Of a DNA stretch of 64,000 nucleotides, positions 9,991-26,074 are shown piece by piece. Positions within the stretch are counted from its first letter, which is position 1, and each line of letters begins with the position of its first letter. Source of the stretch: an uncultured Opitutia bacterium (lineage in GTDB: Bacteria > Verrucomicrobiota > Verrucomicrobiia > Opitutales > Opitutaceae); NCBI GenBank assembly GCA_903881475.1, contig CAIRTK010000028.1:6194-70193 (forward strand), in the 5' to 3' direction. A program made the position numbers and the translations under genes. The notes beneath the pieces were generated by a model that saw only the letters and a list, made by a program, of their open reading frames with translations, did not search any database and had not been told where the DNA came from.

Positions 9991-12036
9991 ATGAGCCTGA
10001 GCTTTTTCCGCCTGAGTTTTGCCGCCTGCCTGCTGCCAGCCGCCTTCAGCGCGAATGCCCAGACCCCGCCGCCGGCCGCCACTCCGGCCCGCGCCCCCGC
10101 CGCCAGCGAGGAACTCGTCGGACCCATCAAGCTCGCCGACGCCGACATCGACACCGTGCTTGGCGCCCTGGAGATCTACACCGGCCGCACCATCCTCCGG
10201 CCGCAGGCGCTGCCCACCGCGAATTACACGCTCAAGCTCAACAAGCAGGTACCCAAATCCGAGGTCATCACCGCCCTCGAGACTTTGCTCGCCCTGAACG
10301 GCGTCGGCATCTCCCCCCTCGGCGACAAGTTCCTGAAGGTCGTCGCCCTCAACCAGGTCAAGACCGAGGCGCCCGAGATGATCGACGGTTCCACGCTCGG
10401 CCTCCCCGCCAGCGGCCGGATCGCCACCAAGCTCTTCCAGCTCGAGTTTCTGCGCGTCAATGAATTCGTCCCGCAGATCGCGCCCATGATGTCGCCCGGC
10501 GTCGCCAACGGCATCGTGCCCCTCGACAAGGCCAACGCCGTCCTCATCACCGACAGCGTCAGCAACCTCCAGCGCGTCGAGAACCTGATCGGCCTGATCG
10601 ACCAGCCCAACGCCCGCGGCCTCTCCCCGAAGTTCTACCCGCTCCACGGCGGCGCGAAGGCCAGCGACCTCGTCAACAAGCTCCACCTGCTCTTCCAAGG
10701 CCCGCTGCAGGCCCAGCTGGGGTCCGCGACCACCTACAGCGCCGACGACCGCACCAACCAGATCATCCTCCTCGCCGATCCCCGGCAGTATGCCCTCTTC
10801 GACGACCTCATCGCCAAGCTCGATACCGTCGCCGAGCCCAACACCCGCAACGAGATCATCTACTTGAAGCACGCGACCGCCAAGGATGTCGCCTCCCTGC
10901 TCAGCCAGCTCGTGTCCGGGCAGAACAACGCCACCCAGAAGGCCAACAGCGCCGGCTCCGTGCGCCCCACCGCGCCGGGCCAGCCGGCCCAGCCCCCGGC
11001 GGCGCCCAACGCCGCCTCTGCCGCCGTCATCGCCAGCCTGTCCGAAAGCACCAACCAGTTCAGCAGCCTGATCACCGTGCTGGCCGACGACCGCAGCAAC
11101 GCCGTCATCGTGTCCGGCACCGTGGACGACATCCGCCTCATCCGCGACCTCGTGAGCAAGATCGACATCGTCCTGGCCCAGGTCCGCATCGAAGTCGTCA
11201 TCGCCGAGGTCACCCTCAGCGACACGGACACCAGCGGCGTCAATGCCCTCAACCTCACCTTCGGCCCGGGCGGTTCCGGCGGCACCCATATCACCAATTT
11301 CGACACCGGCACCTCCGCCAACGGCATCGCGGGCTGGAACATCACCGGCGGCGTGGTCAACCCCCTTGCCTTCCAGGCAGCGCTCGGCAACACCGGCTCC
11401 AAGAACCTCGTGAAGATCCTGTCCGCCCCGACCATCGTCACGACCCATAACAAGCAGGCGACGATGACCGTCACCCAGCAGCAGCCCGTCATCACCGGGA
11501 CAACCTCCACGCCCACCACCGGCGCCACCACAACCTCCAGCGGTTTCTCCACCAGCTCCCAGGTCACCTACAAGGACATCGGCATCACCCTCAAGGTCAC
11601 TCCGCTCATCGGCGATGACGGCAACATCCAGCTGGATGTCGACCAGACCGTCGACGACGTCATCAGCAACGTCACCATCGACGGCAACCAGCAGCCCGTC
11701 ATCGGCCACCGCGAGGCCACCGGCTCCGTGACCGTGCAGGACGGGAAAATGATCGTGCTCGGCGGCCTGCAGCGCAGCTCGCGCAGCTTGTCCCGCACCA
11801 AGCTCGGCTTCCTCTTCGAAATCCCGATCATCAGCCAGCTCCTCGGCGGCCGGAACAACGACATCGAGCGCACCGAGCTGCTGCTCTTCATCCGGCCCCA
11901 CGTCCTGCGCCCGGAGGAAAGCACCGCCGACACGCAGAAGAAGATCAACGACCTCTCCAACAAGGAGCAGGTGAACCAATATCTGGTCGATCCGACGAAG
12001 CAGCCGAAGGAAAGCCTGATCGACAAGCTCAAGTAG
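9991..12036 (+). CDS. gspD: Type II secretion system secretin GspD
   Basis: Signal peptide MSLSFFRLSFAACLLPAAFSANAQ. N0/N1-type repeats are present (DTVLGALEIYTGRTIL, ALETLLALNGV, RVENLIGLIDQP). The C-terminal secretin core is VKILSAPTIVTTHNKQATM...YKDIGITLKVTPLIGDDGNIQL...GGLQ. Confidence 0.9.
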   Translation: MSLSFFRLSFAACLLPAAFSANAQTPPPAATPARAPAASEELVGPIKLADADIDTVLGALEIYTGRTILRPQALPTANYTLKLNKQVPKSEVITALETLLALNGVGISPLGDKFLKVVALNQVKTEAPEMIDGSTLGLPASGRIATKLFQLEFLRVNEFVPQIAPMMSPGVANGIVPLDKANAVLITDSVSNLQRVENLIGLIDQPNARGLSPKFYPLHGGAKASDLVNKLHLLFQGPLQAQLGSATTYSADDRTNQIILLADPRQYALFDDLIAKLDTVAEPNTRNEIIYLKHATAKDVASLLSQLVSGQNNATQKANSAGSVRPTAPGQPAQPPAAPNAASAAVIASLSESTNQFSSLITVLADDRSNAVIVSGTVDDIRLIRDLVSKIDIVLAQVRIEVVIAEVTLSDTDTSGVNALNLTFGPGGSGGTHITNFDTGTSANGIAGWNITGGVVNPLAFQAALGNTGSKNLVKILSAPTIVTTHNKQATMTVTQQQPVITGTTSTPTTGATTTSSGFSTSSQVTYKDIGITLKVTPLIGDDGNIQLDVDQTVDDVISNVTIDGNQQPVIGHREATGSVTVQDGKMIVLGGLQRSSRSLSRTKLGFLFEIPIISQLLGGRNNDIERTELLLFIRPHVLRPEESTADTQKKINDLSNKEQVNQYLVDPTKQPKESLIDKLK

Positions 12037-12052
12037 GCCGCGCGCCGCCGTA

Positions 12053-13777
12053 ATGATCGCGACCGCCCCTGCGTCCCTGCCCGAGTCCCTCGCCGCCCGC
12101 CTCACCGAGGAGCAGCGCCAGGCCGTCGCCGAGTCCCCGCGCGAGAAGCGCCTCGCGACCCTCGCCGCCGCGCTGAAGCTCTCCGAGCCCGAGGCCCTCA
12201 CCGGCCTCGCCGGGGCCGCCGGCCTGGACATCGCCACCAACCTCGAGCCCGACCTCGCCGCCCGCGGCCTCCTGCCGGCCCGGCTCGTGCACGATTACCA
12301 GGTCATTCCGATCCGCTTCGGCGTGCCCGCCGGGGAGCCGGACGCACCCGCCGCCCTTTCCACGCAACCCCTGCACCTGGCCACCGCCTGGCCGCCCGAT
12401 GACGTGATGGCCGACTGGCTCCGCACCTTCACGCCGCGGCCGCCCGTGTGGCATCTCGCCGTGCCGGAGCGCGTGCACCAGCTCATCATCGAGAATTTCG
12501 GCGTCGGCTCCGGCTCGCTCGAGGACGGCGACGACTCCTATGTCGCGCCGGAAACCGCGTCGCAGACCGAGGAGGTCGTGGACGAGGACGCCGCCGTGGT
12601 GCGCTTCGTCACCGACGTGATCTCGCAGGCGGTCGAGGATCAGGCGACCGACATCCATTGGGAGCCGCAGGAGGGCCAGCTGCGCATCCGGTACCGCGTC
12701 GACGGCCTGCTCGTCCCCGTGCCTGTGCCGCAGAACCTCCTGCGCTTCCAGGACGCCATCATCTCGCGCCTCAAGATCATGGCGCGCCTCAACATCTCGG
12801 AGAAGCGCCTGCCGCAGGACGGCCGCATCAATTTCAGAGCCAACGGCACGACGCTCGACATCCGCGTCTCGACCATCCCCACGATCTACGCCGAGTCCAT
12901 CTCGCTCCGGCTCCTGAACCAGAAGAAGGAGGCCTACACGATGGACCGCATCGGCATGAGCGCCGAGGAGCAGGCGCAGATCACGCAGATCCTCGACTAC
13001 CCGCACGGCATCGTGCTCGTGACGGGCCCCACCGGCTCCGGCAAGAGCACCTCCCTGAACGCGTTCCTGCGGAAGATCAACTCCACGGACCTCCGCATCA
13101 TCACCATCGAGGACCCGATCGAATACGAGGTGCCCGGCGTGAACCAGATGCAGGTGCGCCCGGAGATCGGGCTCACCTTCGCCGATGCGCTCCGGCACGT
13201 GCTCCGGCAGGATCCCGACGTGATCATGGTCGGTGAAATCCGCGACAAGGACACCGCCGAGATCGCCATCCGCGCCTCGCTCACCGGCCACTTGGTGTTC
13301 TCCACGCTCCACACCAACGACGCGCCCGGCGCCATCACCCGCCTCATCGACATGGGCATCGAGCCGTTTCTCGTCGCCTCCGCCATCGAACTCGTCATCG
13401 CCCAGCGCCTGGTCCGCCGCCTCTGCCCGCAGTGCGCGCGGCCCGCCCCGGTCTCAAAGGTGAAGCTGATCGAGAGCCTCGCCATCCTCGGGTGCAACGC
13501 GTCCGAGGCCGAGCTCATCACGGAGCTCAACACGCCCGTCGGCTGCGACCGGTGCCGCGGCACCGGCTACCGCGGCCGCATCGGCATCTTCGAGATCTTC
13601 CGGCTCAACGACGAGATGCACGAGCTGGTGCTGAAGCACGAAAGCACGCGCACCCTCGCCGAGACCGCCCGCCGCAACGGCATGCGCACCCTCGGCCAGA
13701 GCGGCTGGGAAAAGGTGAAGGCCGGCTACACCACCCTGGACGAAGTCCTGCGCGTGATCACGGTGACGGAGAAATGA
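12053..13777 (+). CDS. gspE: Type II secretion ATPase GspE
   Basis: Contains a T2SSE N-domain, Walker A GPTGSGKST, Walker B/Asp box IMVGEIRD, His box TGHLVFSTLHTN and the tetracysteine CPQC...CDRC motif. Confidence 0.93.
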   Translation: MIATAPASLPESLAARLTEEQRQAVAESPREKRLATLAAALKLSEPEALTGLAGAAGLDIATNLEPDLAARGLLPARLVHDYQVIPIRFGVPAGEPDAPAALSTQPLHLATAWPPDDVMADWLRTFTPRPPVWHLAVPERVHQLIIENFGVGSGSLEDGDDSYVAPETASQTEEVVDEDAAVVRFVTDVISQAVEDQATDIHWEPQEGQLRIRYRVDGLLVPVPVPQNLLRFQDAIISRLKIMARLNISEKRLPQDGRINFRANGTTLDIRVSTIPTIYAESISLRLLNQKKEAYTMDRIGMSAEEQAQITQILDYPHGIVLVTGPTGSGKSTSLNAFLRKINSTDLRIITIEDPIEYEVPGVNQMQVRPEIGLTFADALRHVLRQDPDVIMVGEIRDKDTAEIAIRASLTGHLVFSTLHTNDAPGAITRLIDMGIEPFLVASAIELVIAQRLVRRLCPQCARPAPVSKVKLIESLAILGCNASEAELITELNTPVGCDRCRGTGYRGRIGIFEIFRLNDEMHELVLKHESTRTLAETARRNGMRTLGQSGWEKVKAGYTTLDEVLRVITVTEK

Positions 13778-13925
13778 TGCGTGCTCCGCCGCAGGGAAAT
13801 TGGGCGATTGCAGCTGGGAGATGGAAATCCTGCTCTCTGCCTGCGGAAGCTCTCCTGATTCAGCACTTCCATCTCCCATCGCCAATCTCCCAACTCCGCC
13901 GGCCGCTTGGCGGCCGGTTTTCCTG

Positions 13926-15152
13926 ATGCCCCGCTTCACCTACAGTGCCCGCGACCACAGCGGGAAAAACATCGCCGACGTACTGGAGGCGCCGAGCCGC
14001 AAGGACGCGCTCCGGCTCCTCGCGGCGCGCGGGCTGCAGGTCGTCGCGGTCCAGGAGGCCGGCGGCGGGCGGGCGGCCCGGAGCGTGGTCGGTGCGGCGG
14101 CGCCGCCCGTCGAACTCACGCGCAAGCACCGGCTGCCGTTTCTCGAGGCGCTGCATGACCTCCTGACCAGCGGCATGTCGGCGGGCGAGGCGGTGCGGCT
14201 GCTCTCGGTGCGCATCAAGGAGCCCGGGCTGCGCACCCTCAGCGGCGGCTTGTGGGAGCGCCTGAGCGAGGGCGCGCCGCTTTCGCGCGCCATGGGGGAG
14301 TTTCCCGCCGTGTTCGATCCCTCCACCGTCAGCCTCATCCAGGCGGGCGAGGCCACCGGCTCGCTCAAGGACACGCTCGAACGGCTGATCGCCCACCTGA
14401 GCGAGCAACGCGACCTCCGGGCCAAGCTGCTCTCCGCCCTCGCGTACCCGGTCCTGCTGATCGTCGTGGCCTGCGGCCTCGTGCTCTTCTTCCTCTTTTT
14501 CCTGCTGCCGCGCCTGCAGACGCTCTTCGCCTCGCTCCATGGCGAGCTGCCCCTTTCCACCAAGATCCTCGTCGGGGGCGCGAATTTCGCCCTACACTAC
14601 GGCCCGTTTATCGCGGTGGCCGCGGTGCTGGGGGGAATTTCCTTCTGGCGCTGGCGGCAGACGGAGGCCGGGCGCCTCGCGACCGACGCGTGGCTGCTGC
14701 GGCTGCCGCTCATCGGCCCGTTCGTCGTTTCCCAGACGGTGCTGGCGTTCAGCCAGACGCTCGGTGTGCTGCTGGCCAACGGCATCACCGCGGTCGAGGC
14801 GCTCCGCATGACCGAGCGGCAGCTCGCGAACCGCGTGCACCGGCGGGCGTTTCACGACGCGACCGACCGCGTCGTCGAGGGCGAGGCCCTCTCCAGTTCC
14901 CTGGGCCGCACGGGCTGTTTCCCCGACCTGGTGCTCGACCGGCTGACCGTCGGCGAGAACACCGGCAATGTCGTGCCCAGCCTCCACGAGATCGCCCGCA
15001 ATTATCAGCGCATCATTTCCGGCCAGCTCAACGTCTTCGTGAACGTCATCGCCACCGTCGTCCTGCTGGCGGTGTTTGTGGTGGTCGGCTTCATCGCCTT
15101 CGCGATCGTGAGCGCAGTCTTCAAGGTCAGCTCCAGCTTCAAGCTGGGGTGA
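13926..15152 (+). CDS. gspF: Type II secretion inner-membrane platform protein GspF
   Basis: ATG at 13926 gives MPRFTYSARDHSGKNIADVLEAPSRKDALRLLAARGLQVV, the typical GspF/PilC start. There are two T2SSF-type repeats and three TM segments. The upstream part of the listed ORF is repeat DNA. Confidence 0.9.
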   Translation: MPRFTYSARDHSGKNIADVLEAPSRKDALRLLAARGLQVVAVQEAGGGRAARSVVGAAAPPVELTRKHRLPFLEALHDLLTSGMSAGEAVRLLSVRIKEPGLRTLSGGLWERLSEGAPLSRAMGEFPAVFDPSTVSLIQAGEATGSLKDTLERLIAHLSEQRDLRAKLLSALAYPVLLIVVACGLVLFFLFFLLPRLQTLFASLHGELPLSTKILVGGANFALHYGPFIAVAAVLGGISFWRWRQTEAGRLATDAWLLRLPLIGPFVVSQTVLAFSQTLGVLLANGITAVEALRMTERQLANRVHRRAFHDATDRVVEGEALSSSLGRTGCFPDLVLDRLTVGENTGNVVPSLHEIARNYQRIISGQLNVFVNVIATVVLLAVFVVVGFIAFAIVSAVFKVSSSFKLG

Positions 15153-15297: not shown

Positions 15298-17169
15298 TTA
15301 CGGCACTTCGTAAATCTCGACCAGCACCACGCCCGAGGCCCCGCCCACGCCGAGCGCTTCCGCGGAATAGACCCCCGGATCGAGCGTCACGAGCAGAACC
15401 GCATCCAAGCTGGCCGGATCCAATGAAAAGGCCCCGAGGCTGGCCGCGAGATTGCTGATGAGGGTTGAACCGCCCCAATTGTCATTGGTCAGGGTGGTGC
15501 CCTGCGGCAGATTAAGCTGGAGCTGCGGATCAGACATGAAGCCGGTGACGCCGTAGGTGCCGAGGGTCGGGCCCACCGCGCGGATCATCAGCGTTTTGGC
15601 GGTGGAGCCGCCGATCACAAAGCCCGCGATCAGCGGGTTGTCGTTGGACATGCTCGCCCGCGCCGAGAGGTTGATGAGCCGCGGGGTCGTCGGACTGAAG
15701 ACCGAGGGATTGGCGTCGTAGATTTCCGCCAGCACGGTTCCGGTCGTGTTGTTCACCCCGCTTACACTCGCCGAATACACCCCGGCTGGCAGGGTCGCGA
15801 CGAGGGCTGAATCCTTGCTGGTAGTGCTCGGCAGGGCGAATGCGCCCACGGCCGCCGCCACGCTCATCACGGTGGGATCGCCGCCCCAGTTGTCATTCGT
15901 CAGCAGCGGCACCGTCGCGCCCGAGGGGATGATGTTGAGGATCGGATCCGCCATCACTCCGGGAACACCATAGCTGGCGAGCGTCGGACCGATCCCGCGA
16001 ATCAGCAGCTGCTTGCTGCCGGAGGTGCCGGCGCCGCCCGTCACGAAGCCGGCAAACAGCACGTTGGCCCCCGTGCCGGAGACAATGCGGACCGAGACAT
16101 TGATGAGGCGGCCGGGATTGGCGGTGTTGACCACCGTCAGGCCGGCGGCGGTGCTGGTCACCGCGCCGGATCCGTTGCTCACGGTTACCGTGTACCCGGC
16201 CGCATCGCTGGCCTGGGCGTTGGAGATGAGATACTGGCTGGAGGTGGCCCCGGAGATGGGGCTGCCGCCTTTGGTCCACTGGTAGGTCAGGCCTCCGCCG
16301 GTCGCGCCCACGCTGAAGACCACCGAACCGCCCGTGGCCACCGTATGGCCCTGCGGCTGGCTCGTGATCACCGGCGCACTCGAGGCAGTGACGGTCAGCA
16401 CAGCCCCTGTGCTTGTGACGGTACCCGCCGAGTTGGTCACGACTGCGGTGTAAGTCCCCGCATCCGACGGCTGCACGTTGTTCAGCGTCAGGGCCGAACC
16501 GGTCTCGCCGGTGATCGCCACGCCGCCCTTGTCCCACTGGATGGTCGGCGCCGGATTGCCCGACGCCCCGACATAAAAAGTCGCCGTGCCACCAGTGGTC
16601 AGGGCCAGGCTTTGCGGCTGGGCCGTGATGGTGGGGGCCGACGTCGCCCCCGACGAGACGGTGATGGTGTAGAAATACGAATGGGTGTTGCCCGTGCCAT
16701 TCAGGCCCTGCCACGCCGTAAGGGTAACCAGATAGGCCCCGGCCGTCGTGGGAGTGCCGCTGAGCAGCAAGTTCGTCGTGTTGATTGTGCCCGAGGAGGT
16801 CAGCCCCGAATAATTCATCCCCGGCGGAAACGAGCCCGTGACCGACCATGACTGGGTCGCCGTTTCAGTGCCCGTCAGCGACAGGGCCACGACCACCGCT
16901 GTCCCCGTCGTGACACTGATGCCCGAGGCGGAGCCGCTGGAGGTGACCAGTTGCGCGGTGGTCGCACCCGCCAGGGAGTCGACGGCCCCGAGCGACGCCG
17001 CAGCCAGGGCCGCGGACTTCAGCACCGCGCCCGCCGGCGAGGCGGCGACCATTTCCTCCACCGCAGCGGCCACGCGCAGCACGGGCGTGCGCTGCAGCAA
17101 GGCGATGAGCAGGCCGGTCGGCACATTGAACCAATGCAGCCAGCGCTGCAGCGAGGAGGATAGTTTCAT
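15298..17169 (-). CDS. Secreted/surface Ig-repeat protein: He_PIG-like domain, two I-set Ig domains and two tandem ~130-140-aa C-terminal modules
   Basis: The two Ig repeats are APTITAQPQSLALTTGGTATFYVGASGNPAPTIQWDKGG...DAGTYTAVVTNSAGTVTS and APVITSQPQGHTVATGGSVVFSVGATGGGLTYQWTKGG...DAAGYTVTVSNGSGAVTS. The duplicated C-terminal module follows the pattern RLIN(V/L)S.R...(L/I)(F/I)AGFV.GG...K.L(L/M)IR..GPTL..YGV.G...DP.L......NDNWGG...GAF.L.....D....TL..GVYSA...G....G..L.EIY. The start is either ATG 17169 (MKLSSS) or GTG 17187. Confidence 0.8.
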   Translation of the reverse strand: MKLSSSLQRWLHWFNVPTGLLIALLQRTPVLRVAAAVEEMVAASPAGAVLKSAALAAASLGAVDSLAGATTAQLVTSSGSASGISVTTGTAVVVALSLTGTETATQSWSVTGSFPPGMNYSGLTSSGTINTTNLLLSGTPTTAGAYLVTLTAWQGLNGTGNTHSYFYTITVSSGATSAPTITAQPQSLALTTGGTATFYVGASGNPAPTIQWDKGGVAITGETGSALTLNNVQPSDAGTYTAVVTNSAGTVTSTGAVLTVTASSAPVITSQPQGHTVATGGSVVFSVGATGGGLTYQWTKGGSPISGATSSQYLISNAQASDAAGYTVTVSNGSGAVTSTAAGLTVVNTANPGRLINVSVRIVSGTGANVLFAGFVTGGAGTSGSKQLLIRGIGPTLASYGVPGVMADPILNIIPSGATVPLLTNDNWGGDPTVMSVAAAVGAFALPSTTSKDSALVATLPAGVYSASVSGVNNTTGTVLAEIYDANPSVFSPTTPRLINLSARASMSNDNPLIAGFVIGGSTAKTLMIRAVGPTLGTYGVTGFMSDPQLQLNLPQGTTLTNDNWGGSTLISNLAASLGAFSLDPASLDAVLLVTLDPGVYSAEALGVGGASGVVLVEIYEVP

Positions 17170-17399
17170 GGGGAAATACTTCTGCACAGACCGCGGGACA
17201 AACCTTGGGTGTCGGATAAAAATCCGCCTCTTCGGTTTTGCGGAATAGACGGCACTTATGAACGGATTGTTACCCTCCCCAAGCCGAGTTCAGCACCCGT
17301 GGGGCCGCCACTCTGCTAGCAGTGGTCATGCCGCGGCCACCGCCAGAGGGCAAAATCGGCGCCAAAGCGAGGGTGGTGTTGGAGCAGCCAGGCACGGGC

Positions 17400-17630
17400 T
17401 CAGTTGCAGCCGCAGCCGCTGCCGCCCACGCCGCGGCCGCCGTTGGCCGATTCCCGGGAAAAATAGATATGCTCCGACATTGCGGTACCCAGCGGATCGC
17501 GGTCCGGTCGCATGGCATAGCTGGCCAGGGTGGCGCGCTCCCACGGCTGGACGTTGACGCTGGTGCAGCCGGTGAAAAGCCCGGTCAGCAGGACAAGGAG
17601 CAGGAACGGGATGAGACGTGGGGATTTCAT
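17400..17630 (-). CDS. DUF4266-like small lipoprotein
   Basis: MKSPRLIPFLLLVLLTGLFTGC provides a lipobox. The C-terminus is glycine-rich and ends GGSGCGCN. At 76 aa it matches my recollection of the DUF4266 family, which travels with DUF3570. Confidence 0.75.
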   Translation of the reverse strand: MKSPRLIPFLLLVLLTGLFTGCTSVNVQPWERATLASYAMRPDRDPLGTAMSEHIYFSRESANGGRGVGGSGCGCN

Positions 17631-17684
17631 GGTATGGGCAATTGGAATGAGGTGGAACGCGTTGGACAGAAGAGGGCACGGGTT

Positions 17685-18275
17685 TCATTGTCTGTCTTTC
17701 TCGGCCAGCAGGGTTTCGACCTGGGTGCGCAGCTCCTTCTCGGTGGCGCTGCCGTGAAAACCCGCATGCACGAAGCGGACGCGGCCGTCGCGGCCCAGCA
17801 CATAGGAGGTCGGCATCGCGGGTACCTTCACCTTGCTCACGAGCTGTTTTTGCTGGTCGAGCAGCGTGGCAAAGGACGGATGGAATTTCTTCAGGAACCC
17901 TTCGTAGTCGACTGTCCGGTCGTCCACGCTCACCGCCACCACGACCAGCCCGCGCGCCGCGTAATCGGCCTGGATCCGGGCATAGACCGGAAACGACGCC
18001 TTGCACGGCGCACACCACGAGGCCCAGAAATCCACGATGGTCACGTGACCAGCCGTCACGGGCAGCGGACCGCCGGTCAGCCCGGCTGTGGCCAGCGCGG
18101 GGAAGGCCTCGCCAGGCTTCAGCTCGGCGCGCACCGCCGGCACCGCCAGCGCGGCGAACAGTAGCATGACGACCGTAGCAGTCGAAGTAAGGAGGCTGGC
18201 GCGAGGCGCCAGGGCCGGCCCAGCCCCGTCACTTGGGCTGCTACGGTTCGGTGCGGAATTAAGTTGCGGCGACAT
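17685..18275 (-). CDS. TlpA/ResA-like membrane-anchored thiol:disulfide oxidoreductase (thioredoxin fold)
   Basis: ATG at 18275 gives MSPQLNS.... The TM anchor is TATVVMLLFAALAVPAV and the active site is DFWASWCAPCKASFP. It overlaps the apbE stop by 17 nt. The longer listed ORF (to 18842) is antisense-free but has no support. Confidence 0.85.
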   Translation of the reverse strand: MSPQLNSAPNRSSPSDGAGPALAPRASLLTSTATVVMLLFAALAVPAVRAELKPGEAFPALATAGLTGGPLPVTAGHVTIVDFWASWCAPCKASFPVYARIQADYAARGLVVVAVSVDDRTVDYEGFLKKFHPSFATLLDQQKQLVSKVKVPAMPTSYVLGRDGRVRFVHAGFHGSATEKELRTQVETLLAEKDRQ

Positions 18276-19264: not shown

Positions 19265-20419
19265 TTACCAGGAGAACTTCACGCCAGCGGTAGTGATGGC
19301 GGCCCGCGGATAGGCGCTGGAGGACGTGACGTGATCCGTGCCGTGCATCTGATACTCCTCGTAAGCGACATTGAACTCCCAGGAGGCGTTGACGGTCCAG
19401 ATCGCCTTCAGGCCGTAGTTATAGCTGCGGAAGGCGGAAAGCCGGTAGTCGGCGGAGTAAAACGGGCCAGCCGGGTTCGGCAGCTGGGACGGCGTGTAGC
19501 TGACGCCATCAAACGAAACAGCGTAGAAATTGGCCGCGGTCTGTTCGTAAAGCCGGAGGCCCGGCCGCAGGATGAGATGCTCCCCGATCTTTTGGAACCA
19601 CGCGAGGTCGACCGTGTGCGCCGTTGTGCCAAAGGTGTCGTGGTAAAACCGGTAGCTTGCCTCCACCGCCCCGTTCAACTTGGGCACCGACCGGTTGATC
19701 GCGGCGTAGGCGGTCCATTTGCTGCGCTGGTCCGGCCGGTTTTCCGCGTAAAGCAGCGGCAGGTACAGGCCGGGGAATACCTCCGTCCTTTTTTCCACGA
19801 CGCGGTAGGGATCGGCCAGATAACCCGTACTCCGGCCATAGCCGACGTTGAACGTGAGCGAGGTCAGCGGGTCGAGGAGCTGGGTGACGCCCGTAATGAG
19901 ATCCAGGCCGTGCTTCGGCTTCACGGTGTCGAGATAGCGCAGGGTCACCCGGTCATCCGTGCCCGCGGCACCAAGGAGCAGCGAGGTGTTCTTCTGGTTG
20001 AAATCGGTCAGCGTATTCACCGACCAGCCGTTGGAAACGTAATCGCTCTCCCGGCTGTAGGCATAGCCGGCGGTGACATTGAGGCCCGAAAACTGGCGGG
20101 AAAGATCCATGCTCCACGCCTTGCGCCGGTCGGAGGTATAGGAAAGCGGCACCGGGCCGCCCGGGGTGGCCGGCGGCGCCCCGTTCGGCGTTGCCCCCGC
20201 GATCGCATCGATCGCGCTCTGCAGTTTCAAGTGCATGTCCGGGCCGAGGTCCTGTTGCACCAGCCCGTATTGCGCCTGGACCGCCACGCGGCCGTCCGCC
20301 TCGCGGTAGTCCTCGTAATCGTAGGTCACGGAGTCCTCTGCCCGGGCCATCCGGGGAGCAAGCCAAGCCAGTAAACCGGCCACCGCCAGCGCGCGACACG
20401 GGACGTGCATTGACCTCAT
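19265..20419 (-). CDS. DUF3570-like predicted outer-membrane beta-barrel protein
   Basis: The start is taken at MRSMHVPCRALAVAGLLAWLAPRMARAED, which includes a signal peptide. The sequence has an alternating beta pattern, is rich in Y/G/T and ends with the terminal GVKFSW. The ORF portion upstream of 20419 runs into a palindromic repeat. It contains DAIAGAT at 20189-20209. Confidence 0.72.
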   Translation of the reverse strand: MRSMHVPCRALAVAGLLAWLAPRMARAEDSVTYDYEDYREADGRVAVQAQYGLVQQDLGPDMHLKLQSAIDAIAGATPNGAPPATPGGPVPLSYTSDRRKAWSMDLSRQFSGLNVTAGYAYSRESDYVSNGWSVNTLTDFNQKNTSLLLGAAGTDDRVTLRYLDTVKPKHGLDLITGVTQLLDPLTSLTFNVGYGRSTGYLADPYRVVEKRTEVFPGLYLPLLYAENRPDQRSKWTAYAAINRSVPKLNGAVEASYRFYHDTFGTTAHTVDLAWFQKIGEHLILRPGLRLYEQTAANFYAVSFDGVSYTPSQLPNPAGPFYSADYRLSAFRSYNYGLKAIWTVNASWEFNVAYEEYQMHGTDHVTSSSAYPRAAITTAGVKFSW

Positions 20420-20514
20420 ATGGAGCGGAGTCCAAACAACCCTCCGGCCGTTGGCGAGTGAGAAGCATGCGGGCAGAGTAACAAACCGGTCAGAAATGCC
20501 CGCAGTGGCATGGT

Positions 20515-20604
20515 CTGTCATTGCGAGGAGCCCGCACGAAGCGGGCGACGAAGCAATCTATCCAGCTGGATCGCCGCGCCCGGCTGCGCCGGGCTCGCGA
20601 TGAC
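20515..20604. repeat. ~90-bp palindromic element (TGTCATTGCGAG...CTCGCGATGACA termini)
   Basis: The termini TGTCATTGCGAG (20515-20526) and CTCGCGATGACA (20593-20604) are inverted and match at 11 of 12 positions. There is an internal hairpin CCCGCACGAAGCGGG. A family A repeat unit follows at 20673-20714. Confidence 0.8.
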
Positions 20605-20766: not shown

Positions 20767-21297
20767 TCAGCGCATGATCTCCACCGACGAGACGCGGATC
20801 GAGGCATTGAGCTGCATCGGGCTTGCGCGGTCGGACTGCAGGCTGAACTGCTCGATCCCGATGTAGGGCGAGCGCTTGGTCAGCTCGAGGTAGAAGCGCT
20901 TCAGCGACTCCCAGTCGGTCTTCTGCAGGTTGAACTGCACCGTATGCACCGCGAACTGGCCGCTCCGCTCGCTCTGCGGCGTGTCGTTGGTGAACCGCAC
21001 CCCCTGGCTCCGCGCAAGGGCGTTCAGTTCGCCGACCAGGCGTGTGTCGTCGAGCGTCCGCGCGGGATCCAGGTTCTTCACCGCCTGCTGGGCATGGGCC
21101 TCGATGGCCGCACGGTCCCGCAGCCACTGCTGCTGGTCCGCCAGGGCGACCGTCGTCGCCCGCTGCGTCCGCCAGAAGGCCGCCGCGCGCTTGCTGAACG
21201 CCGACAGCAGCATGACCGCGACCAGCGCCGTGATCGCCACGAGCAGCAGCTTCTCGCGCAGGAGCCGCTGGAGGAAATAGGCCTTGAAGGATCTCAT
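20767..21297 (-). CDS. gspM: GspM-like T2SS assembly protein (bitopic)
   Basis: 176 aa with a single N-terminal TM segment (KLLLVAITALVAVMLLSAF). It is the last gene of the pseudopilin operon and its ATG overlaps the upstream stop as ATGA. The call rests on position and topology, not on a recognised motif. Confidence 0.55.
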   Translation of the reverse strand: MRSFKAYFLQRLLREKLLLVAITALVAVMLLSAFSKRAAAFWRTQRATTVALADQQQWLRDRAAIEAHAQQAVKNLDPARTLDDTRLVGELNALARSQGVRFTNDTPQSERSGQFAVHTVQFNLQKTDWESLKRFYLELTKRSPYIGIEQFSLQSDRASPMQLNASIRVSSVEIMR

Positions 21298-22439
21298 GAC
21301 GCGGCGGCGGGCTTCAGCGCCTCGGGGTGGAAGGTGATGACGAGGGTGAACGTCATAACGTTGTCCCGTGTGCGCTGGTCGCGCACCTCGACCTTCTCGC
21401 AGGCCGGCAGGTCGCCGAGCGCCGAGCGGAACGTGGAAACCTCGGCGGGCGACGTCGTCTGCGCGTCCACCTTCAGCGTGTACAGCCCGTCCGTCGTGGC
21501 GCGCAGGAACTGGATGGAGACCGGCCGGATCGTGCCGCTCACGAGCGAGATCATCTCGAGCGGCAGAAGGCGCTTGGTCGAGAGTTCGTTGATGTGGGTG
21601 GCGAGGCTCTGCTGCGTCATGATCTGGTCCACGACCGGCTGCTGGGCCGCGACCTTCAGCTCGCGGCCCTTCTGCCAGAAGCCGGCGCCGTACAGGGCCG
21701 CCCAGCCGAGCACGATCAGGCCGATCGCCGCCGCACAGCCGAGGAATCCGCGCCAGAGCATCACGTCGCGGGCCCGCGCCCGGCGCAGCGCGGCGAGTTC
21801 CGCCTTGTCCCGCACGTCCATCGTCGCGGCCAGCGCCGCGGGCAGCCGCGAAACCCGCGACTCCGCCCGGAAGACAAATTCATCCTCGCTGCCCGCGGCC
21901 GCCACCGGCTCCGGCGGCGCGCCCAGCTCGATGACTTCCCGGCTGCCGCCGGCGGCGCGCAGCAGTTCGTCCCGCACGCGGGTCTTTTCCGCGTCATCGG
22001 CCGCGGCCGGGAGCGGCCGGAACAGCACCGCCGCGGGCACCGTCCCTTGGTCCCAGTGGATCGCGGTCAGCCCGTCGGCCGAGGTCACCAGCAGCGTGGT
22101 CGCCGGGGAAACCTCGCCGCCGAGCAGCGCGGCAAACGCCGGCAGCACGAGTTCGGCGCCGTTCCATGACTCCACCTGCTCGCGGGTGAAGCGCCGGCGG
22201 TAGGCCGCAAAGACCAGGGCCCGCTCCGCCCCGGGCACCCAGAAGAAGCCATGGTACAGTTGCGCGGGCGGAAAGGGCGCCAGCGCCTCCAGCCCCAGTT
22301 CCGCCTGGACCGCCGCCTCGGCGGGCGTCGCCGCCGGGGCCATGGGAATGGCCCGGGCGAAGAACAGCGCATCGGGCAGCAGCACCACCTTGGCGGCGGG
22401 TACGCCGGCCTTGGGCGGGTTGGGGGAAGGCTGGGTCAT
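21294..22439 (-). CDS. gspL: GspL-like T2SS assembly protein (cytoplasmic domain, one TM segment, periplasmic domain)
   Basis: 381 aa with a central TM segment FLGCAAAIGLIVLGWAALYGAGFW. It is translationally coupled (ATGA) to gspK upstream and gspM downstream. The call rests on position and topology. Confidence 0.5.
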   Translation of the reverse strand: MTQPSPNPPKAGVPAAKVVLLPDALFFARAIPMAPAATPAEAAVQAELGLEALAPFPPAQLYHGFFWVPGAERALVFAAYRRRFTREQVESWNGAELVLPAFAALLGGEVSPATTLLVTSADGLTAIHWDQGTVPAAVLFRPLPAAADDAEKTRVRDELLRAAGGSREVIELGAPPEPVAAAGSEDEFVFRAESRVSRLPAALAATMDVRDKAELAALRRARARDVMLWRGFLGCAAAIGLIVLGWAALYGAGFWQKGRELKVAAQQPVVDQIMTQQSLATHINELSTKRLLPLEMISLVSGTIRPVSIQFLRATTDGLYTLKVDAQTTSPAEVSTFRSALGDLPACEKVEVRDQRTRDNVMTFTLVITFHPEALKPAAAS

Positions 22440-23617
22440 GCGGATGGGACAGCGGGCGGAGGAGTTGGAATCGCAGGATTTTCCTGAATTTCCAAGAGAG
22501 TAAATGGATAGTTGAGCTGCGGCGGCGGAGTCGCGGCGGTCGAGGTGCTGGAACTGGCGGACGTGGACGTGGAGGCCGCGGTGGCGGTGGATGTGACCGT
22601 GGTCGTCGTGCCAGACGTGGCGGACCGGGTGGAGGTTGCATTCGTCTGCACGATCGTGGCGCCACCCTGCGGCGCCACCACCGCGGTCAGGCGGAACTCC
22701 TCGCGGCCCTCGCGGATCGTCACGTTCACCCGCAGCGCCCGGACCTGGATGCCGGCCAGCGGCGGCAGGGCCGCCGAGCCCAGCACGGTGCTGGCCTGCA
22801 GCGCCGTGGTGAACCAGCTCGGGCCCTGCGAGGCATAGGTGCCGGTCCCGGCGAGAAAGTCGTTAAAGCGCTGCTGCTGCGAAAGGTCGGGGAAGCCGAT
22901 GGCGGACAGCACGTCCGGCGTGGCCGCATTGAGGTTGGCCTGCTGGTAATTATAGAGGGAAAATGTCGCGACAAACCGCCGCCACAGGTCGTTGGGCCGG
23001 CCCTGCTCGTCGTAGAACATCTCGCGGGCGTAATCGATCGCCGCCAGTTCCGAATACGACCGCAGCGGGCGCGACGGCGGCAGATAGGGCAGCGCGGATT
23101 GCTCGTAATCCGGCGCCTGGCCCGTGGCAGGCACATAATTCGGCTGCATCCAGCCCAGCAGTGCGTCCGTGAGATGCTCCGCGTCGGCCTGCTTGAGCGA
23201 CCAGGCCTTGAACAGGTTGGTCAGCGTCCCGGCATCGACCCGCGACAGGGAGATCTTGCCGCTCTCGTCCTGCAGGGTGACTTCCGCCGTGCACCCTTCG
23301 CGCGGCGTCCAGCCCGCCCACCCGAGCGGATCGCCCCAGCCTTCCGCGGGACTGTGCAGCGCCCCGTTGGCCTGGCGGAAGTCCTCGAGCGTCGCCAGCG
23401 TGACCTCGAGGGCCGAATACGCCTCCCGCCGCAGGCGCCGCGCCGAAGCCTCGCGCGCCTCGACCAGCAGGTCTGTGCTCGCCTGCTCGATGAAGAGCAC
23501 CAGCGCAAACGACGTGAATAGCAGCGTCACCAGGACAATGATGAGCACCGAGCCCGACTCTTTCCGGGTGGAGCGCGCGCTCCCGGCCGAATCCTGGCAT
23601 GACAGTCCTCGGTTCAT
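22436..23617 (-). CDS. gspK: T2SS minor pseudopilin GspK
   Basis: The N-terminal hydrophobic helix GSVLIIVLVTLLFTSFALVLF is followed by the region ...SGKISLSRVDAGTLTNLF...DALLGW...L.SYSELAAI, typical of the GspK crossover/helix-hairpin-helix region. The C-terminal tail is S/T-rich. Confidence 0.8.
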   Translation of the reverse strand: MNRGLSCQDSAGSARSTRKESGSVLIIVLVTLLFTSFALVLFIEQASTDLLVEAREASARRLRREAYSALEVTLATLEDFRQANGALHSPAEGWGDPLGWAGWTPREGCTAEVTLQDESGKISLSRVDAGTLTNLFKAWSLKQADAEHLTDALLGWMQPNYVPATGQAPDYEQSALPYLPPSRPLRSYSELAAIDYAREMFYDEQGRPNDLWRRFVATFSLYNYQQANLNAATPDVLSAIGFPDLSQQQRFNDFLAGTGTYASQGPSWFTTALQASTVLGSAALPPLAGIQVRALRVNVTIREGREEFRLTAVVAPQGGATIVQTNATSTRSATSGTTTTVTSTATAASTSTSASSSTSTAATPPPQLNYPFTLLEIQENPAIPTPPPAVPSA

Positions 23618-23619
23618 GG

Positions 23620-24282
23620 TCAGAAATTGGGCATGCCGGCCGTCGGGGCGCTGAGCACGATGACGGTTTCCCGCGTCATCTTCCCGTAGGCGAATTTCAG
23701 GCGCAGGCGCTGCGGGGTCTGCAGCTGGCCGGTGTTATCCTTCCGGATCGCGGTCTCCGTCTTCCACGTCTTGAAGTCGGAGTCGTAATAATCGTAGGCC
23801 AGCGCGGTGACGAGCGGCGTGATGACGAGCTCGCGCGGCGGGTCGTCGCCAAATTTTTTCTCCAGGCGCGACTGCCACAGCAGCACGAGCCCCTGGCTGT
23901 CGCGCGCCTGCAGCGAGCACACTACCTCCGGCAGCGGCCGGTCCGGCCAGTTGAAGAGGCGGCACCCGGCCGTCAGCTCGAAGGTCAGAAGGTTGTCCGA
24001 CTGTCCGCTCAGCGGGCGGACCTCCTGCGCCGTGATGGGCGCGCCGCCGGCGACGGCATAGGGTGGCAGCGCAGCCGCGCGGAGTTGCTGGTCGAGAAAG
24101 CGCGTGACCGCCCGCACATGCCGGTCGAACAGGCGGACATCCGTGTTGCGGCCCCAGAGCTCGCCCATCGAGAACACAAACACGTTGAGCGAAACCAGCA
24201 CCAGCGCCGTCAGCGCCAGCGCGAGGAGGATTTCGAGCAGGGTGAAACCGGCGCGGATTTTCGATTTCGTCACTCTGAGCAC
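23620..24282 (-). CDS. gspJ: T2SS minor pseudopilin GspJ-like
   Basis: The prepilin N-terminus VLRVTKSKIRAG|FTLLEILLALALTALVLV follows GTG 24282 (alternative GTG 24273). An ATG at 24465 is ATGA-coupled to the gspI stop, but it would add a 72-aa leader made of repeat DNA. Confidence 0.7.
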   Translation of the reverse strand: MLRVTKSKIRAGFTLLEILLALALTALVLVSLNVFVFSMGELWGRNTDVRLFDRHVRAVTRFLDQQLRAAALPPYAVAGGAPITAQEVRPLSGQSDNLLTFELTAGCRLFNWPDRPLPEVVCSLQARDSQGLVLLWQSRLEKKFGDDPPRELVITPLVTALAYDYYDSDFKTWKTETAIRKDNTGQLQTPQRLRLKFAYGKMTRETVIVLSAPTAGMPNF

Positions 24283-24381
24283 AGCGAAGTCCAAGCACTG
24301 GGGCCTGGCTCGACATCCAGCCGGAGTACGTTGCGAGTTTAGACCGCGCCCAGCTGGATTCTTGACTTCGTTCAGAATGAC
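24269..24381. repeat. Palindromic element inserted between gspI and gspJ (GTCACTCTGAGC...GTTCAGAATGAC)
   Basis: GTCACTCTGAGCACAGCGAAGTCCAAG (24269-24295) is an imperfect inverted repeat of CTTGACTTCGTTCAGAATGAC (24361-24381). It translates as the familiar VILNEVKNP-type repeat peptide. Confidence 0.75.
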
Positions 24382-24461
24382 AAAGCGGGATTGCAGACCC
24401 ACTCCGGATTCCGACCCCATCTGCCATCTACTAAATTCCAACTTCCCGGCTGCGGCCTTTT

Positions 24462-24908
24462 TCATGGGTTCGCCCCCTGCAGCCCCTTGATGCGGTTCTG
24501 CGCATTCTGGCGCAGCGTGGAGTTCGCCACCGGGTCGGCCCAGGTCGGGCGGTCCACATTGAAATGCTCGGTCACCGTCTGCAGTCCGCCCCCGGTGGGT
24601 TCCGTCAACTCGCACACAAACGTCACGAGGAACAGGTCGGCGGTGTTGGTGGCCTCGATGGTGGCGTGCCATTTCACATGGCGGCCGCCGAGGGAATCGT
24701 AATCCCCGCCCTGCTCCGCCTTGTCGTGGTCGGGCTCCGCCAGCAGCTGGGCCCGGGCGAAGCTGACGTCCTGGTCGTACTGGTTGCCGCGCTGGGCCTG
24801 CTCGTAGGCGTTGAGGACGTTTACATACCCCGCGCCCAGCACGACGGCGGCGAACGCGAAGATCGCGAGCGCGACCATGACCTCAAGCAGGGTGAAGGCG
24901 CGGCGCAT
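24462..24908 (-). CDS. gspI: T2SS minor pseudopilin GspI
   Basis: MRRA|FTLLEVMVALAIFAFAAVVLGAGY... at 148 aa. It starts 1 nt after the gspH stop. Confidence 0.8.
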   Translation of the reverse strand: MRRAFTLLEVMVALAIFAFAAVVLGAGYVNVLNAYEQAQRGNQYDQDVSFARAQLLAEPDHDKAEQGGDYDSLGGRHVKWHATIEATNTADLFLVTFVCELTEPTGGGLQTVTEHFNVDRPTWADPVANSTLRQNAQNRIKGLQGANP

Positions 24909-24909
24909 G

Positions 24910-25614
24910 TCAGGTCGGGTTGTCCCCGCGCGCCAGCACCTGGGCGCAGGTCCACGGGTCGATGGCCAGGATGCGGGCGGACCCGCCGGCGCGGAACTGC
25001 ACCCGGCAAGCCGTGCAGGTGCCGTCGGGATAAAACGTGACGGAGGGCATCGTCTGGGTGTCCACGAGCGTGCCGCCGATCAGGATCGTGCTGCCGCCAG
25101 TCTGCGCCGACAAAAATTCCACCGTCAGGTCCTGCGCTGGCGGCACCGGCAGGGATTTCTTCACGGTGCCGTCGTCCAGCACGAACGCCTTCTCCTTGGG
25201 ATCGAAGCTCAGCCGCACCTCCTGCTCGGACTTGAGCGCGGCCTGGCGCGACTTCAGGACAGCCTGCCAGAACACATCCTCCGCCGTGGCGGGTTTGTCC
25301 CCGATCAACTGGGCCGAGCCGGTCACCAGCGCACCGGCCAGCAGCGCCATAAGCGCCAGCGCGAGGAGAATCTCCAGCAGCGTGAACGCTGCGCGGCGCG
25401 GCGCGGCTGCGGACGTTTCCCGGGTCGGGCGAGTTGCCTGGCCGCCATCGCCCCGGCGGAGAAGGATCCCCGACGAGCCGCCCCCTTGACCAGAGCCATC
25501 GGCTGAAAGCGGATCGCTGATCTCTGCCTTCTGACTTCTGGCCTCCGGCCCCCGGCCTCTGACCTCCGTCAGCGGCAAGCCGCCCACCCTCCCCCGGCAA
25601 TGGACCAGGCGCAT
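24910..25614 (-). CDS. gspH: T2SS minor pseudopilin GspH-like with anomalously long pre-FTLLE leader (start uncertain)
   Basis: The mature-type N-terminus AA|FTLLEILLALALMALLAGALV begins at 25386. Hand translation finds in-frame start codons upstream only at ATG 25614, GTG 25587 and TTG 25575. Confidence 0.65.
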   Translation of the reverse strand: MRLVHCRGRVGGLPLTEVRGRGPEARSQKAEISDPLSADGSGQGGGSSGILLRRGDGGQATRPTRETSAAAPRRAAFTLLEILLALALMALLAGALVTGSAQLIGDKPATAEDVFWQAVLKSRQAALKSEQEVRLSFDPKEKAFVLDDGTVKKSLPVPPAQDLTVEFLSAQTGGSTILIGGTLVDTQTMPSVTFYPDGTCTACRVQFRAGGSARILAIDPWTCAQVLARGDNPT

Positions 25615-25624
25615 CGGCAAACCC

Positions 25625-26074
25625 TCACCAGTTGCCGATATCGTCCGCGGTGCCCTCGGTCTTGTCGGGGCCCTTGGAGAAGATGTCATAGCCGTTCTTG
25701 TTATGGACGCCGGGATAGCGGTAGATGTAGGGCTCGCCCCACGGATCGAGGGGGATCTTGGAGTCGGAGAAATAGGGACCGGTCCACTGGCCCTCCTTGC
25801 CGCTCGGCGCGGTGATCAGGGCCTGGAGGCCCTCCGCGGTCGAGGGATAGTCGCCCATCTTGATGCGGTAGCTGGTGAGCGGGAGCTTGATGGACTCGCG
25901 CACGAAGAGCTTGGCGGTCGAGGTCTGGGCATCGCCGAAAATGCTGTCGAGGTTGGTGACCGCCAGGCCGACGAGCAGCCCGAGGATGGCCAGGGCGATC
26001 ATGATCTCCAGGAGCGTGAAACCCCGGCGCAGCGCGCGGAGGGGAGAGCGGGACGAGCGGGGTGACAGAAGCAT
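25625..26074 (-). CDS. gspG: T2SS major pseudopilin GspG
   Basis: ATG at 26074 gives MLLSPRSSRSPLRALRRG|FTLLEIMIALAILGLLVGLAV. The C-terminal GspG signature is GPYF...DPWGEPYIYRYPG...YDIFSKGPD. Confidence 0.92.
   Translation of the reverse strand: MLLSPRSSRSPLRALRRGFTLLEIMIALAILGLLVGLAVTNLDSIFGDAQTSTAKLFVRESIKLPLTSYRIKMGDYPSTAEGLQALITAPSGKEGQWTGPYFSDSKIPLDPWGEPYIYRYPGVHNKNGYDIFSKGPDKTEGTADDIGNW

Follow-up and report, generated by a model that had tools for sequence, protein, structure and literature searches.

The 64,000-nucleotide stretch of DNA analysed here (hereafter the window) derives from an uncultured Opitutia bacterium and carries, on its minus strand, genes for a DUF3570 protein, the flavin adenine dinucleotide (FAD):protein flavin mononucleotide (FMN) transferase ApbE, a thioredoxin-like protein and a DUF4266-type lipoprotein, in that order, and then a gene for a 623-residue protein with immunoglobulin (Ig) repeats, which we refer to as the target. 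The target begins with a conserved 70-residue leader that ends in D-S-L-A-G-A-T, a heptapeptide close in form to the ApbE motif D-x-x-[S/T]-G-A-[S/T] (PMC12052999). The leader family and its link to the DUF3570 module are new, and the leader is absent from Pfam and NCBIfam. DUF3570 is a proven family of ApbE substrates whose function and partners are not known (PMC8238504); a conserved lineage-specific partner, together with a leader family of 410 clusters, provides an experimental handle on this module. We consider it very probable that the target is an Opitutales-specific accessory of the DUF3570-ApbE-thioredoxin-DUF4266 extracytosolic redox module that is equipped with a new leader. That Thr70, the last residue of the motif, is itself flavinylated is a more tentative proposal, which we weigh below against cleavage of the leader and other readings.

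Synteny and architecture of the target

A genome scan with a leader profile, built from a 10-sequence alignment, recovered 78 loci, all of them from Opitutales/Opitutaceae metagenome-assembled genomes and isolates that include Lacunisphaera, Didemnitutus and Horticoccus. Among the 63 loci with enough upstream sequence to be informative, 57 have a DUF3570/ApbE/thioredoxin cluster upstream of the leader gene and on the same strand; the leader gene is less than 1 kb from the nearest cluster gene in 40 of these, and ApbE is among the cluster genes in 46. The ApbE-cluster neighbourhood pointed out in an earlier, sequence-only reading of the window is therefore a conserved one. That reading had also proposed export through the flanking type II secretion system (T2SS), a link that our results weaken to one of synteny in part of the lineages: T2SS genes lie inside the flanks of 25 of the 57 loci, and one orthologue is found immediately upstream of DsbD-DUF3570-thioredoxin-DUF4266 with T2SS genes absent nearby. 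Because the association holds in loci without T2SS genes, the leader appears to be linked to the DUF3570 module and not to the T2SS. In the window, the block running from DUF3570 to the target interrupts the two halves of a T2SS locus (9991-15152 on the plus strand and 20767-25689 on the minus strand), with GspD, GspE and GspF on the plus strand, convergent, and the pseudopilin, GspK and GspM genes upstream on the minus strand; the block sits between T2SS halves also in loci L001-L004, L021, L055, L056 and L065.

A homologue search with the target returned 2386 matches, for which the named sources were Verrucomicrobia or Opitutaceae, and 27 full-length orthologues share 46-90% identity with it. 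The protein contains no cysteine by composition count, and no cofactor motif was seen elsewhere in it, though the gene belongs to a redox operon. Its full-length AlphaFold2 (AF2) model has a predicted local distance difference test (pLDDT) score of 84. A first beta-sandwich always follows the leader; the earlier reading described this segment as He_PIG-like, and the beta-sandwich is indeed present in the model at residues 71-175, but the label finds weak support, as the window segment had no match to He_PIG (PF05345) at E<=10 and one orthologue reached E 0.004 and 17.9 bits, under the cut-off of 24. The two I-set Ig domains described in the same reading were recovered by Pfam, in two stretches each for Ig_3 (E 2.6e-25, 89.1 bits, cut-off 30) and I-set (E 5.9e-23, 81.2 bits, cut-off 23.7); the Pfam search of the target found nothing further. 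From its composition and predicted fold, the target would be an exported, all-beta "string" protein that looks cofactor-less.

Table 1 Coordinates of the target, its parts and its upstream neighbours in the window, and of a four-gene module at three related loci.
Feature	Coordinates	Strand	Basis
Target coding sequence, 623 aa: leader, Ig-like domain, two I-set Ig domains, two jelly-roll modules	15298..17169	-	Open reading frame, translation, Pfam, orthologue alignment, AF2
Conserved N-terminal leader, residues 1-70	16960..17169	-	Orthologue alignment, position table, HMMER scan
LLQRTP, near-invariant signature after the first hydrophobic stretch	17083..17100	-	Leader alignments
D-S-L-A-G-A-T, residues 64-70: candidate flavinylation site (Thr70) and/or signal peptidase I site (A67-G68-A69|T70)	16960..16980	-	
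First beta-sandwich (He_PIG-like/Ig-like), residues 71-175	16645..16959	-	AF2 strands E73-E172, pLDDT about 79-92
Two I-set/Ig_3 immunoglobulin domains, residues ~178-347	16129..16638	-	Pfam, AF2
Jelly-roll module 1 (RLINVS ... EIYD)	15691..16119	-	Internal repeat, AF2, Foldseek
Jelly-roll module 2 (RLINLS ... EIYEVP, protein end)	15301..15690	-	Internal repeat, AF2, Foldseek
DUF4266-type lipoprotein, 76 aa, lipobox LFTGC, C-terminal C-G-C	17400..17630	-	Translation; PF14086 at the same position in L001 and L002
Exported thioredoxin-like protein (TlpA/ResA-type); start uncertain, Met at 18275 or 18167	17685..18275	-	Pfam Redoxin/Thioredoxin_8, NCBIfam ResA/DsbE
ApbE FAD:protein FMN transferase, no hydrophobic N-terminal segment	18259..19254	-	Pfam ApbE 1.5e-72
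DUF3570 protein, signal peptide, DAIAGAT at nt 20189-20209, C-terminal ...KFSW	19265..20521	-	Pfam DUF3570 1.3e-65
Four-gene module at related loci	L043 5577-9917; L001 5460-9783; L002 11963-16294		

A leader family with a conserved terminal core

The leader is organized as a basic segment (n1), a hydrophobic stretch (h1), the signature LLQRTP, a candidate A-x-A|E-E site, SP.G.VL(K/R), an Ala-rich stretch (h2) and finally [HNDQ][ST][LM]AGAT. Across the 27 orthologues L21, L25, Q26, R27, P29, G61, G68, A69 and T70 are invariant, while Asp64 varies; in a set of 135 non-redundant leaders G61 is found in 100%, Lys/Arg at position 51 in 98% and L60 in 93%. Information per position in this set is higher over the whole leader than over the domain that follows it, a pattern unlike that of an ordinary signal peptide. 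The leader is present in 74 of the 120 best homologues, in proteins of 613-1084 residues, and substitutes for the ordinary signal peptide with which the remaining paralogues begin. In a HMMER scan of 1.84 billion representatives it was detected in 410 clusters, each time at the protein N-terminus, and those clusters for which taxonomy was seen belong to Opitutales; searches with the leader against Pfam (E<=10) and NCBIfam gave no match. In the AF2 model, residues 1-70 have pLDDT <50 and are helical at low confidence, and the confident fold starts at residues 71-73. Two candidate cleavage sites are found in the leader, the partly conserved A-x-A|E-E near residues 35-37 and the terminal 69|70.

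The terminal motif lies exactly where the sequence-only reading had placed it, and the motif of the same form that it reported in the DUF3570 protein four genes upstream, DAIAGAT, was located at residues 105-111 of that protein. Within 74 leaders the core reads GAT in 71 and GAS in 3, and in 69 of them LLQ and the Thr are spaced 46 residues apart; further representatives give GAT in 84 and GAS in 3, and in the rest the core is displaced by one residue but retains [AV]GAT. A larger set of 201 distinct leaders with LLQR[TSA]P has G-A-T/S at the fixed 46-residue spacing in 183 and shifted by about one residue in 10. GA[ST] is thus retained in 193, and frameshift or truncation is the apparent cause of its absence from the remaining 8. 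Numbering Thr70 as +1, all of the 135 non-redundant leaders have His, Asn, Asp or Gln at -6 (82, 28, 19 and 6, respectively), position -5 is Ser, Thr or Ala, position -4 is Leu or Met, and position -3 is Ala in 125, Val in 9 and Thr in 1. The leaders therefore have the G-A-[S/T] core and the conserved Ser/Thr of ApbE substrates, but not the Ser/Thr that the ApbE motif places at -3. DUF3570 sites in the same loci, which read [IL]-D-[AST]-I-[A/T]-G-A-T-P, likewise have Ala or Thr there. Of the D-S-L-A-G-A-T segment that was to be looked for in orthologues, then, the A-G-A-T core is kept in all leader-bearing orthologues and paralogues, whereas the Asp is not.

The earlier reading cautioned that short motifs can be hit by chance in Ala/Gly/Thr-rich proteins, and one may postulate that this is all the motif represents, with the gene a passenger beside the ApbE cluster. 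A single occurrence is indeed weak when taken alone: [STA]GA[ST] occurs 4 times in the target against 0.93 expected, and D..[STA]GA[ST] is expected 0.022 times, or in 2% of proteins of this composition. Three more S-G-A-T are found in the target, none of them with Asp at -6, at residues ~176-179 (the junction preceding the first I-set domain), 309-312 (a conserved I-S-G-A-T turn in the second I-set domain) and 419-422 (inside jelly-roll module 1), which indicates that the short motif arises easily in such proteins. The terminal motif nevertheless stands above chance because G-A-T/S is universal among the leaders at a fixed distance from LLQRTP, and the synteny in 57 of 63 loci extends across many species. 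Conservation and synteny already contradict the chance or passenger explanation, which we regard as very improbable.

Several other identities were considered for the leader and set aside. An internal start at Met40, which would give a 30-residue signal peptide, is not consistent with the replacement of this Met by Leu, Phe, Val or Ile in orthologues or with the conservation of the upstream 39 residues as protein. A twin-arginine translocation (Tat) signal is not apparent, as the target has a single Arg (LQRWLH) and no S/T-R-R-x-F-L-K; R9-R10 are found in about 70% of leaders, followed by L-[R/H]-W instead of the hydrophobic residues of Tat signals. By inspection, a prepilin-peptidase site (G|A-T-x-L against G|F-T-L) would lack Glu at +5 and has its hydrophobic part before the site and none after it. 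A double-glycine (C39/PCAT) leader, suggested by G-A at -2/-1, was rejected on the large size of the proteins and the absence of such a transporter from the neighbourhoods examined, and an amphipathic helix at residues 49-66 was rejected on its low hydrophobic moment (0.13-0.15). Homology of the leader to the DUF3570 N-terminus was likewise considered, but the likeness does not extend beyond the heptapeptide, the DUF3570 context being strand-like and Pro-rich.

The leader is modular with respect to what follows: of 73 long members, 29 carry the jelly rolls at their C-terminal end, where the remaining 44 lack them. Some leader proteins of 829-1081 residues (loci L013, L018, L031 and L041) end instead with a short Arg-rich tail, e.g., ...LAMGRRLFRPRR, and these tails look like PEP-CTERM-type sorting signals in place of the jelly rolls. 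Other C-terminal ends read ...DVTAQIVVNPAP or ...PPSNAIVTITVE.

Possible flavinylation, cleavage or docking of the leader

One explanation for these observations, and the one that we tentatively favour while rating it as somewhat less than an even prospect, is that Thr70 is flavinylated on a retained tail of the leader. The first of the two hydrophobic stretches (residues ~14-25), which is also the stronger, would drive Sec export and would then be cut off near A-x-A|E-E (residues ~35-37) or stay as an anchor. The remaining leader would be retained as an Ala-rich helix ending in [H/N/D/Q]-[S/T]-[L/M]-A-G-A-T, and ApbE would transfer FMN to Thr70 as it would to the D-A-I-A-G-A-T-P of the DUF3570 protein encoded upstream. 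The Ig string would thus bear its FMN on a flexible extension at its foot, the C-terminal jelly rolls would bind an external polymer or surface, and electrons would move, in one direction or the other, between the target and the flavinylated DUF3570 protein, which presumably resides in the outer membrane.

We favour flavinylation because the seven residues align in register with the ApbE motif, with the terminal Thr replaced by Ser alone, and because the fixed Gly at -2, the fixed Thr/Ser at +1 and the restricted choice at -6 are left unexplained by the specificity of signal peptidase. As the DUF3570 sites of the same loci, which belong to a validated substrate class, end in [A/T]-G-A-T-P, A-G-A-T-P is a native form of the site in the clade. 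According to a review (PMC12052999), replacement of the Asp by Ala had minor effects only in Klebsiella fumarate reductase, and a 7-residue tag suffices. The residue at -6 also varies with the presence of ApbE: Asp occupies it in 9 of 10 leaders whose cluster has no ApbE of its own (in L014, L017, L026, L030, L036 and L057 the DUF3570 gene is followed directly by that for thioredoxin, ApbE is absent from the locus and the motif reads I-D-S-M-A-G-A-T) versus 3 of 49 where the cluster holds ApbE, which fits a relaxed motif that has co-evolved with a dedicated enzyme. The first hydrophobic stretch has a hydrophobicity (KD9) of 2.27, within the 2.1-2.8 of the classical signal peptides of paralogues, and the stretch preceding AGAT is weaker at 1.85. 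Further points in favour are the conservation of the leader over its entire length, the synteny with the ApbE/DUF3570 cluster, kept beside DsbD in the absence of T2SS, and the lack of Cys or another cofactor motif in a protein encoded in a redox operon.

Compared with established ApbE substrates (the FMN_bind domains of NqrC/RnfG, NqrB/RnfD, DUF2271 and DUF3570; Meheust et al. 2021, PMC8238504), the target shares the seven-residue register ending in G-A-T/S, has an export signal, likewise has apbE and a gene of a validated substrate family as neighbours, and has the A-G-A-T(-P) core in common with the local DUF3570 site. It differs in that its -6 residue is mostly His or Asn and not Asp, its -3 residue is Ala or Val and not Ser or Thr, no flavin-binding domain is present, and its site, which closes an N-terminal leader, would also serve as a signal-peptidase site. 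The two main flavinylation surveys make no mention of Ig-type or Verrucomicrobial substrates (PMC8238504, PMC11334425). The sequence-only proposal that the target is a second ApbE client hence retains the link to ApbE and the conserved core, but the Asp and the Ser/Thr at -3 are not conserved and the local ApbE has no signal peptide.

A number of results weigh against flavinylation, and several of them are what would be expected if the leader were simply removed. Lys/Arg51, the ~12-residue Ala/Leu-rich stretch, a polar c-region of 6 residues, Ala, Val or Thr at -3 and Ala at -1 together make a textbook signal peptidase I site, and the low pLDDT up to residue 70 with a fold from 71-73 is as expected of a removed leader. 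The sequence-only reading had proposed to check whether the motif sits just after the cleavage site; the motif is instead itself a perfect match to the -3/-1 rule of signal peptidase, located where the leader passes into the first folded domain, although every [S/T/A]-G-A-[S/T] sequence is bound to comply with this rule. At the weaker upstream A-x-A, 72% of leaders have Ala at -1, and R27 and R32 fall within the c-region. Searches of Pfam and NCBIfam found no flavin-binding domain after the site. The Asp at -6 is present in 53 of 53 DUF3570 sites of the loci and in about 14% of leaders, the correlation of this position with ApbE may reflect only one or two clades, and the synteny loci are the best matches, ranked by similarity to the window's own leader. 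[ST]GA[ST]-like tetrapeptides are common in the target as a structural feature of its Ig repeats. The local ApbE, lastly, has no recognisable signal peptide or lipobox (maximum KD9 1.41), whereas the signal peptides of the DUF3570, thioredoxin-like and DUF4266 proteins reach 2.5-3.2. The ApbE N-terminus in the window and about 50 loci (e.g., L001 3436-4425 and L002 8190-9182) is Pro-rich, M-A-L-[IV]-[AS]-Q-S-[HQR]-R-x-P-P-P..., and this apparently unexported ApbE would have to modify an exported DUF3570 protein.

An alternative that we regard as quite possible, though doubtful, is that the whole leader acts as an extended Sec signal peptide in two parts (n1-h1-n2-h2-c). Cleavage by signal peptidase I at Ala69|Thr70 would break up the motif, which would then never receive a flavin; the mature protein, starting at Thr70, would serve the DUF3570 module as a structural or adhesive partner without redox function, or would be merely co-regulated with it. 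Besides the n-h-c layout and the -3/-1 residues, which hold in 100% of leaders, this scenario accounts for the low hydrophobic moment of the h2 region, for a mean hydrophobicity of the Ala/Leu-rich h2 (residues 52-63) like that of one paralogue's classical signal peptide, for the fold that begins directly after the site and for the strict placement of the leader at the extreme N-terminus in all 410 clusters. The leader replaces the ordinary signal peptide of paralogues and heads proteins with PEP-CTERM-like tails, and must therefore provide export, and its Asp is not conserved, in contrast to that of DUF3570. Cleavage does not account, however, for an unvarying Gly at -2, for Thr/Ser at +1 and His/Asn/Asp/Gln at -6, or for the occurrence of Asp at -6 mainly where the cluster lacks ApbE. 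The more hydrophobic h1 should meet the translocon before h2 does, G61 within h2 is atypical of signal-peptide cores, and a total length of 69 residues with a stronger hydrophobic stretch upstream is atypical as well.

Two known types of sorting signal are relevant here. ESPR-type signal peptides are long, conserved, two-part sequences on autotransporters and TpsA exoproteins, and the corresponding Pfam family is, we presume, PF13018. The leader is likewise long and two-part, and is found on large beta-rich proteins beside genes for putative outer-membrane barrels; it differs in lacking sequence similarity to the ESPR family (no Pfam ESPR match at E<=10), a further point against a cleaved leader, and in being conserved up to the cleavage site, in having the stronger hydrophobic stretch first and in being confined so far to Opitutales, where it is tied to a redox cluster. 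The other precedent, which speaks for cleavage, comes from Proteobacteria, in which DUF3570/DUF4266/TlpA neighbourhoods hold a dedicated, sorted JDVT-CTERM partner protein (Haft 2023, 10.1101/2023.06.07.544157). Both partners are lineage-specific, have a dedicated sorting signal and share the same redox neighbourhood, with which both are read as working; the JDVT-CTERM signal is C-terminal and contains Cys, while that of the target is an N-terminal leader.

The leader could also be a recognition or docking domain for a partner encoded nearby, with A-G-A-T a processing or hinge site and a function in sorting or assembly instead of redox chemistry, a scenario that we consider unlikely. It would fit the conservation of the whole leader position by position, above that of the next domain, and the attachment of the leader to unrelated C-terminal parts. 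Dispersed copies of the leader gene also adjoin a module of four genes for an OmpR-type response regulator, a CarboxypepD_reg protein, a histidine kinase and a protein of ~416 residues; this module lies beside leader proteins in 41 loci, even with no DUF3570 nearby, as in L043, the one inspected among six loci without the cluster within 6-10 kb upstream. The signal peptide and C-terminal ...TVRF of the ~416-residue protein suggest an outer-membrane barrel, and docking partners might be this protein, the DUF3570 protein, which is presumably likewise an outer-membrane barrel, or a hypothetical processing enzyme. Against docking, the gene for the ~416-residue protein and the module as a whole are absent from the window, the neighbourhoods examined contain no candidate protease or sortase-like gene, and no N-terminal sorting system with the signature of this leader is known. 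Any reading beyond flavinylation, cleavage and docking, chance included, is improbable.

Flavinylation of Thr70 can be extended to a broader scheme, which we view as a speculative long shot, in which the Opitutales DUF3570 module is a flavin conduit across the outer membrane. Electrons would pass from the FMN of the putative DUF3570 barrel to the Thr70 FMN on the retained leader tail of an Ig protein that is held at the cell surface or outside it and directed to a substrate by its collagen-binding-like jelly rolls. The module would parallel the MtrCAB porin-cytochrome complex but lack cytochromes, and would use a new, relaxed ApbE site, [H/N/D/Q]-x-x-A-G-A-T, and an ApbE without signal peptide. 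If Thr70 is flavinylated, ApbE substrates gain a class with a relaxed motif and no flavin-binding domain, and searches by D-x-x-[S/T]-G-A-[S/T] overlook real sites. If it is not, the leader is a new conserved extended signal peptide in Verrucomicrobiota, and a warning follows from it, given that flavinylation-like [S/T/A]-G-A-[S/T] sites all satisfy the -3/-1 rule.

C-terminal jelly rolls and further observations

The homology between the two C-terminal modules, which the sequence-only reading recognized but could not assign to a family, is clear (50% identity, E 2e-35) and reflects a tandem duplication. Structure prediction, proposed there as a check, now explains the fold as a jelly roll like those of PPC and collagen-binding domains. 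The AF2 model of the tandem, calculated from 29 sequences, has pLDDT 95.6 and pTM 0.91 and consists of two beta-sandwiches, each with short helices. Its top Foldseek match in the PDB is the tandem of collagen-binding domains s3a-s3b of ColG (5iku; E 3.9e-6, probability 1.0); other matches are the jelly-roll N-terminal domains of DeCLIC, LipL32 and the C-terminal domain of the KP-43 protease, the last two at probability >=0.99. TM-scores for the tandem are low (0.27-0.31), probably as a result of differing relative placement of the two domains, and identity is about 8-14%. The target modules thus share with ColG s3a-s3b and PPC (PF04151) a tandem jelly-roll fold at the C-terminus of exported proteins, and differ from them in their low identity and the lack of a Pfam match at threshold.

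Sequence searches add little to this assignment: one of 29 module members matched PPC, below threshold (E 0.013), the window module sequence did not match Pfam PPC at E<=10, a PDB sequence search with the modules gave nothing significant, and no Pfam or NCBIfam family was matched. Four acidic residues, D62, D107, E136 and D139, are invariant in the module alignment (A4). On the predicted structure, the modules are an unannotated family of PPC/collagen-binding-domain-like jelly rolls, and by analogy they may have a binding role. In several homologues with 50-76% query coverage (e.g., P0051, P0056, P0070, P0080, P0087 and P0096), unrelated N-terminal parts replace the leader and Ig domains; according to Pfam these include PQQ-like and NHL repeats, a GlcG-like domain and a peptidyl-prolyl isomerase, and one homologue is named as a matrixin/adamalysin peptidase. 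The protein encoded at L002 16393-18399 is counted among these. The tandem jelly roll appears to be common to these homologues; if so, it is a general C-terminal module of exported Opitutaceae proteins and ends many of them. The module family is a candidate addition to domain databases.

A few minor observations concern gene arrangement at these loci. The target is separated from the DUF4266 gene by a 230-nt gap (17170-17399) and could be transcribed separately from it; consensus scans and an Rfam search over 15-21 kb revealed no sigma-70-like promoter, terminator or Rfam match in that region, the gap included. The CarboxypepD_reg protein of the four-gene module bears a cupredoxin-like C-x2-H-x2-M stretch. 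Leader genes occur in tandem in several loci, and in L075 (6077-12291) the order is ApbE, thioredoxin-like protein, a leader protein of 454 residues (...L-V-G-A-S), DUF3570 and a second leader protein of 448 residues (...L-A-G-A-T). In L014, an Ice_binding-like protein with a VPDSG-CTERM signal (17060-17992) is encoded a few kb downstream of the leader protein, to which it is probably unrelated.

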